Assembly: GCA_965242965.1 (NCBI GenBank)
Contig: OZ251518.1
Span: 2,592,001 to 2,656,000 of the forward strand
From: Candidatus Poribacteria bacterium
Lineage (GTDB): Bacteria > Poribacteria > WGA-4E > WGA-3G
Length of the DNA: 64,000 nucleotides
Direction: 5' to 3'
Part shown: positions 52,053-52,424 of the stretch, piece after piece
Position numbering within the stretch: the stretch's first letter is position 1
Layout of the letters: every line of letters begins with the position of its first letter
Position numbers and translations under genes: made by a program
Notes under the pieces: generated by a model
What the model was told of the DNA's origin: nothing
Seen by the model: the letters and a program-made list of their open reading frames with translations, nothing else
The model's database searches: none

Positions 52053-52424
52053 TTAATCCGGCTTCCTCGCGCCGTATTTCGAGCGGCCCTGTCGCCGGTT
52101 CTCTACGCCGGCGGTGTCCAGTTTCCCGCGAACAATGTGGTAACGGACATTGGAGAGGTCCTTCACGGCACCCCCACGCACCAACACGACTGAGTGCTCT
52201 TGCAAGTTGTGGTCGATCCCGGGGATATAGCAGGTTGCCTCATAGCCGGAGGTAAACCGCACGCGGGCTACCTTGCGCAATGCTGAATTCGGCTTGTTTG
52301 GCGTAATCGTTTTCACCTGCAAACAGATGCCGCGACGCTGCGGACATTGCTGCAACACCGGGGATTTCGTCTTCTTCCGGGACCGCTTGCGCGGTTTTTT
52401 GATTAACTGGTTAATTGTCGGCAT
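52053..52424 (-). CDS. rpsL: 30S ribosomal protein S12
   Basis: [33 protein letters not shown]. Confidence 0.98.

Follow-up and report, generated by a model that had tools for sequence, protein, structure and literature searches.

Natural substitutions at streptomycin and decoding sites of ribosomal protein S12 in Candidatus Poribacteria, accompanied by swapped base pairs in 16S rRNA

The window, by which we mean the whole 64,000-nucleotide stretch of DNA analysed here, contains on its reverse strand three genes of the str operon, the first of which, rpsL, is the subject of this work. The genes and the codons referred to below are as follows.

52053..52424, minus strand: rpsL, ribosomal protein S12, 123 amino acids (open reading frame translation, family profile and alignment)
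51562..52032, minus strand: rpsG (S7), the next str operon gene after rpsL (open reading frame)
49407..51521, minus strand: fusA (EF-G), the third str operon gene (open reading frame)
52296-52298, minus strand: codon AAC, Asn42 (K42N), from the sequence
52167-52169, minus strand: codon GCC, Ala85 (R85A), from the sequence; two nucleotide steps from the arginine codon CGC
52161-52163, minus strand: codon AAG, Lys87, from the sequence; retained
52158-52160, minus strand: codon GAC, Asp88, from the sequence; retained
52152-52154, minus strand: codon TCC, Ser90 (P90S), from the sequence
52149-52151, minus strand: codon AAT, Asn91 (G91N), from the sequence

The translation of 52053-52424 (minus strand), which includes [13 protein letters not shown] and [13 protein letters not shown], matched the NCBIfam profile of bacterial S12 (TIGR00981) with 206.4 bits (cut-off 112.95) over residues 1-122 of the 124-position profile. 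Alignment to solved bacterial and chloroplast S12 chains was ungapped (1-122 to 1-122), with E-values between 1e-58 and 1e-45, and all three displayed alignments had K, R, P and G where the window protein has N43, A86, S91 and N92 (initiator Met counted). In the numbering of mature E. coli S12, which is used hereafter, these differences are K42N, R85A, P90S and G91N. The first-pass annotation had reported the same four substitutions with K87 and D88 kept, and codons and alignment bear it out in every detail.

The residues K42, R85, K87, P90 and G91 of S12 are textbook invariants, whose role in accuracy and streptomycin response is known from laboratory mutants in a few species. The window protein departs from the near-universal K42 and from the R85...K87-D88-L89-P90-G91 loop by having N42, A85, S90 and N91. 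The family traits K43, P44, N45 and S46 (PNSA loop), H76 and D88 were all kept, and the four changes are a departure at conserved residues that leaves membership in the S12 family unaffected.

The region 5' of rpsL has features of its own. A promoter-like site at 52698-52726 (minus strand) agrees with the sigma-70 consensus in 12 of 12 positions (TTGACA, 17 nt, TATAAT, with TG). Between this site and rpsL lies a candidate leader RNA of about 170 nt (52505-52690, minus strand) with a conserved hairpin block, which could be aligned across genera; the candidate leader ends in an intrinsic-terminator-like hairpin (52513-52526) followed by a T run, about 80 nt 5' of the ATG. With simple regular expressions, both the promoter-like and the terminator-like sites were detected 5' of rpsL in 96 of 110 genomes of family f1. 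An Rfam search with the leader returned nothing at threshold, the best matches (Spot_42, 17.5 bits; snR83, 15.9 bits) being far under the gathering scores. The putative leader may be a ribosomal-protein leader, an attenuator or a small RNA.

The genome assembly, 94.66% complete, has a length of 5,700,154 bases in 2 contigs, and Pfam PF00164 (Ribosom_S12_S23) matched it exactly once. Contigs from 4 public sequencing runs belonging to 4 studies each span 51900-52800 in one piece, and the only differences inside rpsL are at 52131, 52185, 52224 and 52236, all of which are, by arithmetic, third codon positions; the four focal codons are unaltered. Several of the public runs containing near-identical sequence carry the label sponge metagenome, and no RNA runs were among the public runs listed as containing the stretch. 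The S12 of the closest relative, G001, is identical except for the last residue. We therefore reject as next to impossible an assembly or polishing error, a pseudogene, or a second, specialized S12 beside a canonical copy, for which no supporting evidence was found and which is contradicted by the single match in a nearly complete two-contig genome, the intact frame inside an rpsL-rpsG-fusA operon, the G001 protein, the agreement of four runs and the non-canonical S12 of the relatives.

For the distribution of these residues, 176 species genomes of Candidatus Poribacteria were sampled, and S12 was recovered from 171 of them; in all 171 loci a relative of rpsG was located 3' of rpsL. The residues at the variable sites were as follows (171 species each).

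Site 91: Asn 169, Gly 2 (the two Gly species belong to families f5 and f8)
Site 90: Ser 116, Ala 13, Pro 42
Site 42: Lys 76, Asn 77, Arg 12, Thr 4, Ser 2
Site 85: Arg 145, Lys 19, Asn 5, Ala 2
Site 87: Lys 151, Arg 20
Site 93: Arg 164, Gly 7

K43, P44, N45, S46, H76, V86, D88, L89 and V92 were the same in all 171 species. P90S was fixed in families f1 and f2 and in some deep lineages. K42N was the state in most of family f1, yet site 42 was polymorphic there, with Ser in genus g4 and Lys, Asn or Arg in genus g5. R85A was limited to the window genome and G001 (2 of 171), a further member of the same genus (G002) having Arg. Residues other than Lys at position 42 occurred in 95 of the 153 species of the order f1-f4 and in none of the 18 species of the deep families, a comparison that amounts to one phylogenetic contrast and not to a statistical association. 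By their distribution, the four substitutions are of very unequal age: G91N characterizes the phylum as a whole, P90S families up to an order, K42N a family in which it is polymorphic, and R85A two species. The window species has the most derived combination (N42, A85, S90, N91). The earlier proposal to check fixation across related genomes can be answered in favour of a natural and fixed allele, carried by the sole rpsL and common to relatives, and the opposite case considered at that time, an error or a pseudogene in a lineage whose relatives have canonical S12, is contradicted by the phylum survey, the independent runs and the single copy.

At the level of codons the changes are mostly single-nucleotide steps (AAR to AAY, AAT to AGT, AAR to AGR, AAG to ACG, and CCN to TCN or GCN), with two steps needed for R85A (CGC to GCC) and for G91N (GGY to AAY). 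The path to G91N may have led through an Asp intermediate; Asp at this position (92D, Met counted) is among the resistance substitutions curated in a recent preprint (10.64898/2026.06.09.731231, available part).

The turnover of these sites was followed on a FastTree phylogeny built from S7 and the first ~390 aligned columns of EF-G, with S12 excluded and with the other class of the phylum as the root. The minimum numbers of changes by Fitch parsimony were 16 at position 85, 14 at position 42, 10 at position 90, 9 at position 87 and 2 at position 91, counts that the short tree, with its poor resolution within genus g5, has probably inflated. By number of changes, positions 85, 42, 90 and 87 rank 8th, 10th, 16th and 18th, respectively, among the 123 columns of S12, and thus change as often as the variable N- and C-terminal tails, in a protein in which 42 columns are without any change. 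A conservative count based on taxon labels alone gives at least 6 events at position 42. Lys gave way to Asn at the base of f1, to Arg both in g5 and in g15/g17, and to Thr in g11/g16; Asn gave way to Ser in g4 and to Lys in g5.

The changes are not independent of one another. K42R was in every case accompanied by R85K, K87R and P90A (12 of 12 species), and this R-K-R-A haplotype (R42, K85, R87, A90) was found in two families: in genus g5 of family f1 (10 species) and in genera g15 and g17 of family f3. Horizontal transfer of the haplotype was considered and appears unlikely from the sequences, in that the remainder of the protein is lineage-typical and the S7 and EF-G tree puts g15 and g17 outside f1. 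We read its presence in two families as convergence under epistasis rather than transfer.

Outside the phylum the same states are rare. One genome per species (185,579 species) was scanned with a degenerate DNA pattern for GG-x-V-K-D-L-x-N-V-R-Y, which detects G91N together with K87 and R93. At least 115 stretches matched, and among the 80 matches listed all 80 S12 cores were identical to a Poribacteria sequence of our phylum set. A second pattern, P-[N, T(ACY), S(AGY)]-K-P-N-S-A-L-R-K, detecting K42N, K42T and K42S, gave 110 stretches in all; among the 80 of these matches listed, 53 were from Poribacteria and 27 from other organisms. Of the latter, 20 were confirmed as S12 (N 9, T 7, S 4), and in the remaining 7 of the 27 a regular expression detected no such S12 motif. 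The 20 outside cases came from Patescibacteria, Chloroflexota, scattered Actinomycetota, Proteobacteria and Victivallales, and mostly had a canonical 85-94 loop. Non-Lys residues at position 42 are thus rare elsewhere, and Poribacteria make up the majority of cases among the matches listed, a rarity that agrees with the survey in the preprint cited above.

The first-pass annotation had thought a compensation by changes in S5, S4 or 16S rRNA probable, and for 16S had named the 530 loop, the 912 region and h44 as the places to look. The single 16S gene of the window genome was aligned with those of 76 other genomes of the phylum, with E. coli 16S for numbering, and compared with the Rfam bacterial consensus, which has u13, C18, U20, G505, C526, A915 and G917. 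Differences from this consensus were found in helix 1, the central pseudoknot, the 915 region and the 505-526 pair, in line with that expectation for 16S. A13 replaced U13 in 76 of 76 Poribacteria sequences. The central-pseudoknot pair 18-917 was changed from C-G to A-U (A18 in 76 of 76, U917 in 75 of 75). C20 was present in 73 of 76 sequences and G915 in 73 of 75, and the 20-915 pair covaries, since both sequences with A915 carry U20. At the 505-526 pair of the 530-loop pseudoknot, the 77 sequences had A-U (60), G.U (8), G-C (4), G.A (4) and A.C (1), corresponding to single-site tallies of U 68, A 4 and C 5 at 526 and of A 61 and G 16 at 505. Within the regions named beforehand, 505-526 is changed, whereas C912, A913, A914, G530, A1408, A1492 and A1493, like A523 and G527 (77 of 77), were the same in every sequence. 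C19-G916 and G1410-C1490, which at first sight look unusual, were rejected as such: both are the Rfam bacterial consensus and differ from E. coli only.

The 915-917 motif of Poribacteria was absent from 39 of 39 genomes outside the phylum (14 with at most 1 mismatch, and 25 others), and the 5' motif with the variants at 13, 18 and 20 from 40 of 40. The 505-526 pair is less specific: among the 80 loci listed in a scan for variants of this pair, 53 had U-A, 14 G.U, 9 A-U and 4 G.A, with U-A in Patescibacteria, G.U in Chlamydiae and Planctomycetota, and A-U in Caldisericota. Among 27 S12 sequences from 26 genomes outside the phylum that carry 526U or 526A, 25 had K42 and none had N91. A general coupling of 505-526 variants with S12 remodelling is therefore unsupported. 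Revised V4 primers are reported to detect Poribacteria better (PMC13271367, available part); the 505-526 site lies under the 515F primer, and a primer mismatch there fits this better recovery.

Two modification enzymes bear on the same region, and the first-pass annotation had suggested looking for the genes of both; one was present and the other was not found. RsmG was identified in the window genome (TIGR00138, 160.9 bits, cut-off 99.5), so that, judged from the sequence, the prerequisites for m7G527 in the 530 loop, the enzyme and G527, would both be in place. RimO was not found in the window genome with the TIGR01125 profile (cut-off 356.95): the two best matches, at 276.9 and 256.3 bits, were assigned to MiaB (485 bits) and MtaB (436.9 bits). 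D88, the methylthiolation target of RimO, was kept in the window S12. Above the cut-off, RimO was detected in 14 of the 176 phylum genomes, every one of them in families f5 and f7-f11, and in 0 of the 158 genomes of the order f1-f4.

The sites that vary in Poribacteria are those at which streptomycin phenotypes were obtained in the laboratory. The streptomycin pocket consists of h1, h18, h27, h44 and uS12, and the drug contacts C526 and G527 (PMC10525438, available part); the contacts in h18 are described as contacts with the phosphate backbone. According to the available text of PMC3884664, dependence sites in E. coli are P90, G91, P41, K43, P44 and N45, near h44; in Thermus, replacing P90 by a small residue (G, A, C) leads to resistance and by a bulky one to dependence; P90 dependence is suppressed by changes of K42; P90L dependence is reversed by a change at 1490 in h44; and changes of R85 result in pseudo-dependence. 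K42N is described as reducing both stop-codon read-through and missense errors (PMC6547416, available part), and streptomycin-resistant Salmonella with K42N or P90S as growing more slowly in rich medium (PMC9561153, citing Paulander 2009; available part). The states seen in Poribacteria fall into this network with respect to S12 and to the rRNA alike.

In the preprint 10.64898/2026.06.09.731231, as far as its main text goes, curated resistance residues in rpsL are present in 1190 of 15,721 species (7.57%); 88R accounts for about 70% of these species, 43R for most of the others, and only seven species have anything else, including 43N and 43T. The curated panel comprises, with Met counted, 43R, 43T, 43N, 88R, 88E, 91L, 92D and 86C, and its positions 43, 86, 88, 91 and 92 are five sites varying in Poribacteria. 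The window S12 matches the panel in 43N; the altered residues that it has at positions 86, 91 and 92 (A, S and N) are absent from the panel. A search of the preprint's main text for the string 'Poribacter' found nothing.

These data bear on two statements made earlier about the individual alleles. The description of K42N as a resistant and hyperaccurate allele is supported by the reduced read-through and missense errors (PMC6547416, available part) and by the presence of 43N in the curated resistance panel. The statement that P90 and G91 changes give dependence is too simple: both are E. coli dependence sites, but resistance was the outcome in Thermus when the side chain at P90 was small (PMC3884664, available part). 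In the window protein, S90 is a small side chain, of the type giving resistance in Thermus, N91 is at a dependence site, and K43, P44 and N45 are unchanged; no literature report of Asn at the dependence site G91 was found. Since a wild organism cannot depend on a laboratory drug, any dependence-type state would at most be a compensated one.

Of the nearest known systems, the laboratory mutants with K42N in E. coli and Salmonella have the identical Lys-to-Asn replacement, whereas in Poribacteria the change is natural, occurs in 77 of 171 species and, in the window genome, stands beside N91, S90, A85 and an altered 16S. Because N42 of the window protein adjoins these other changes, the laboratory phenotype of K42N is not simply transferable. 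With the P90 series of Thermus thermophilus the Poribacteria S12 has in common the epistatic network of 42, 85, 90 and 91 near h44; that series consists of single and double laboratory mutations, and Ser90, Asn91 and Ala85 are not described in its available text, whereas in Poribacteria natural evolution has explored the network along no fewer than two convergent routes. The preprint deals with the same kind of subject, predicted intrinsic resistance from resistance-type residues in wild rpsL, whereas G91N, P90S, P90A and R85A are outside the eight-mutation panel of its main text.

On the side of the rRNA, the rrs mutations of streptomycin-resistant Mycobacterium tuberculosis affect the same 16S 505-507/524-526 pseudoknot. 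C526U is one mutation of this kind. Mutations of the 530-loop pseudoknot in this organism are the reported subject of a 1993 paper by Finken et al. Unlike these mutants, most Poribacteria have changed both partners (A505-U526), by which the Watson-Crick pair is restored. Natural replacement of the G505-C526 pair is shared with Patescibacteria, Chlamydiae, Planctomycetota and Caldisericota, but these lineages mostly have canonical S12, and the pair change combined with G91N was found in Poribacteria only, among the matches listed.

Taking these observations together, we propose, with a probability of roughly 0.6 for the joint statement, that rpsL at 52053-52424 is the genuine, sole and functional S12 gene of this Candidatus Poribacteria bacterium, and that its residues are lineage-fixed states of a ribosomal pocket rebuilt in the phylum, with poor binding of streptomycin-type ligands and with accuracy set by epistasis. 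At or near the stem of the phylum, G91 of S12 would have been replaced by Asn, U13 of 16S by A, and the C18-G917 pair by A-U. Within the class, U20-A915 would have become C-G, and the 530-loop pseudoknot pair G505-C526 would have started varying, mostly to A-U. The order of the window genome would have come to be without RimO, the D88-methylthiolating enzyme, and in that order positions 42, 85, 87 and 90 of S12, near-invariant in other bacteria, would have turned over repeatedly among few residues. We infer this order of events. The resulting N42/A85/S90/N91 ribosome of the window species would be expected to bind streptomycin-type ligands poorly, because in model bacteria K42N and small side chains at P90 give resistance, and its decoding accuracy would be set by epistasis among S12 positions 42, 85, 90 and 91 and the swapped rRNA pairs, with no single substitution deciding. 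The description of a naturally remodelled decoding centre given by the first-pass annotation fits the decoding-centre face of S12, which is remodelled. Its further suggestion, intrinsic streptomycin insensitivity, is plausible, because the substituted sites are those of laboratory resistance, dependence and hyperaccuracy; we infer it and go no further, because epistasis could leave the behaviour near wild type. Against a resistance reading are the retention of rsmG and the position of G91N and R85A outside the eight curated resistance substitutions.

A near wild-type phenotype is indeed a serious rival. The effects of K42N, P90S and R85 changes cited above were obtained in canonical backgrounds, and their net effect could be near wild type in the presence of N91, an altered rRNA and suppression by K42 changes; binding of streptomycin may be little affected, as compensated pair swaps should keep the geometry and the contacts in h18 are to the phosphate backbone. 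In its explicit form this explanation, which we hold to be somewhat unlikely, states that after G91N and the rRNA swaps the positions 42, 85, 87 and 90 became functionally far less important and drifted by neutral turnover, so that the allele is approximately wild type and reflects neither drug selection nor accuracy selection. It would account well for the toggling of position 42 among K, N, S, R and T by single-nucleotide steps, for the compensated nature of the rRNA changes and for the ability of K42 changes to cancel P90 effects (PMC3884664, available part). Both the retention of K42 in 76 of 171 species and the apparent return from N to K within genus g5, moreover, speak against a steady selective pressure for residues other than Lys. 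What it explains less well is the narrowness of the residue set, which consists of laboratory resistance alleles (N, T and R at 42, R at 87, S or A at 90) between flanks invariant in 171 of 171 species, and the combination R42, K85, R87 and A90, which arose in two families, K42R never being found without the other three (12 of 12). Because of this linked haplotype, epistatic selection is favoured over free drift.

Selection by an external agent is a further alternative, which we regard as improbable. Here the changes would be driven by natural products that bind the pocket, aminoglycoside-like or other, in the sponge holobiont, and the haplotypes would be alternative solutions to resistance. 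The coincidence of the variable sites with the five curated streptomycin-resistance positions (main text of 10.64898/2026.06.09.731231), the convergent haplotypes, the near-identical sequence in runs labelled sponge metagenome and the restriction of non-Lys 42 to the order f1-f4 (95 of 153 species, as opposed to 0 of 18 deep-family species) would all be compatible with it. K42 and N42, however, are both found among the species of one genus, the difference between the order and the deep families is a single phylogenetic contrast, the deep families have G91N too, and both producer and compound are hypothetical.

A wider version of the rebuilt-pocket reading can be formulated, though we think it doubtful. 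The periphery of the decoding centre, rewired by Asn91, by three swapped tertiary or pseudoknot pairs of the rRNA lining the streptomycin pocket and, in the main order, by life without the D88 enzyme, would have made K42, R85, K87 and P90 evolvable, and the epistatically locked haplotypes N-R-K-S, R-K-R-A and N-A-K-S would be maintained under fluctuating selection by pocket-binding products of the sponge holobiont. If this were true, the decoding site of the ribosome would be the scene of a natural arms race on the scale of a phylum.

The concept of natural, rpsL-based predicted intrinsic resistance is already in print (10.64898/2026.06.09.731231, main text). In the papers listed on Poribacteria with streptomycin or ribosomal protein S12, judged by title or abstract in the case of streptomycin, we did not find described the phylum-wide G91N, the standing of Poribacteria as the clade with most natural K42N, the recurrent four-site R-K-R-A haplotype, or the accompanying 16S pair swaps and RimO loss.

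Poribacteria thus offer a natural series of 171 species in which one invariant residue of S12 was replaced throughout and others were changed repeatedly, sometimes in a convergent and linked manner. S12 haplotypes that stand beside defined rRNA swaps and the loss of the D88 enzyme provide concrete material on epistasis in the decoding centre, and G91N with the 16S motifs at 13-20 and 915-917 can serve as practical molecular signatures of the phylum. To our knowledge, no member of the phylum has been cultured. The insensitivity to streptomycin-class compounds predicted here for this abundant, uncultured phylum of sponge symbionts would bear on attempts at antibiotic enrichment and cultivation.

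The combination of K42R, R85K, K87R and P90A in ribosomal protein S12, on the background of the phylum signature N91, was seen in two separate families of Poribacteria. The genomes carrying this four-site haplotype were:

Genus g5: G018, G150, G151, G161, G163, G172 and others
Family f3: G064 and G066

The K42R replacement was always accompanied by R85K, K87R and P90A (12 of 12).

In a small sample, a G505.A526 mismatch in the 530-loop pseudoknot of 16S rRNA, where the Rfam consensus has a G-C pair, co-occurred with an S12 residue 42 that was neither Lys nor Asn:

Poribacteria, three lineages (G005, G009, G172 and G064): residue 42 is S or R in 4 of 4
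Outside the phylum, one Dehalococcoidia and one Woesebacteria genome (G189 and G200): residue 42 is R

Exceptions were two Patescibacteria, which retain K42 together with G.A at 505-526. Helix 44 of the 16S rRNA also varied: the 1409-1491 pair is U1409-A1491 in G064, and in family f8 (G049-G056) A1409-U1491 replaces C-G, alongside an S12 with K87R and R93G, to which R85N is added in five of seven species.

A further naturally remodelled S12 loop is found outside Poribacteria, in some Patescibacteria proteins that combine K42S with the loop GGRRKDLVGV (V86R and P90V); these are encoded at loci L582, L587, L621 and L629 (Saccharibacteria, Andersenbacteria, Patescibacteria). One Poribacteria genome, G086, contains a second, short S12-like match:

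L141 (G086:C1:5298763-5301882), match at 5300263-5300382

It lies about 4.6 kb away from the real rpsL, shows 65% identity across residues 21-60 and may be a gene fragment.

RimO, the enzyme that methylthiolates D88 of S12, scored over the cut-off in 14 of the phylum genomes (G000-G175), all belonging to the deep families f5 and f7-f11, and was not found in any of the 158 genomes of the order comprising f1-f4. D88 is invariant even where RimO was not found.

Upstream of rpsL the following element was located:

Window 52505-52726, minus strand: promoter-like site, leader and terminator-like hairpin

The promoter-like site fits the sigma-70 consensus perfectly (12 of 12 positions). The promoter segment (52695-52751) aligned also to other contigs, with 2-4 mismatches, in all four public runs compared, and word depth rose across it, which suggests a promoter module that is repeated and serves several loci. 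On the 3' side of the promoter-like site follows a leader of about 170 nt. Within the leader lies a hairpin block that is conserved (…GGAAACAUUCUAACGUYG – loop – CACGUUAAUUUGU…), and at its end, shortly upstream of rpsL, stands an intrinsic-terminator-like hairpin. The leader had no Rfam match. The promoter-leader-terminator arrangement is kept in 96 of 110 family f1 genomes, and the element may act as a ribosomal-protein leader or attenuator, or may correspond to a small RNA.
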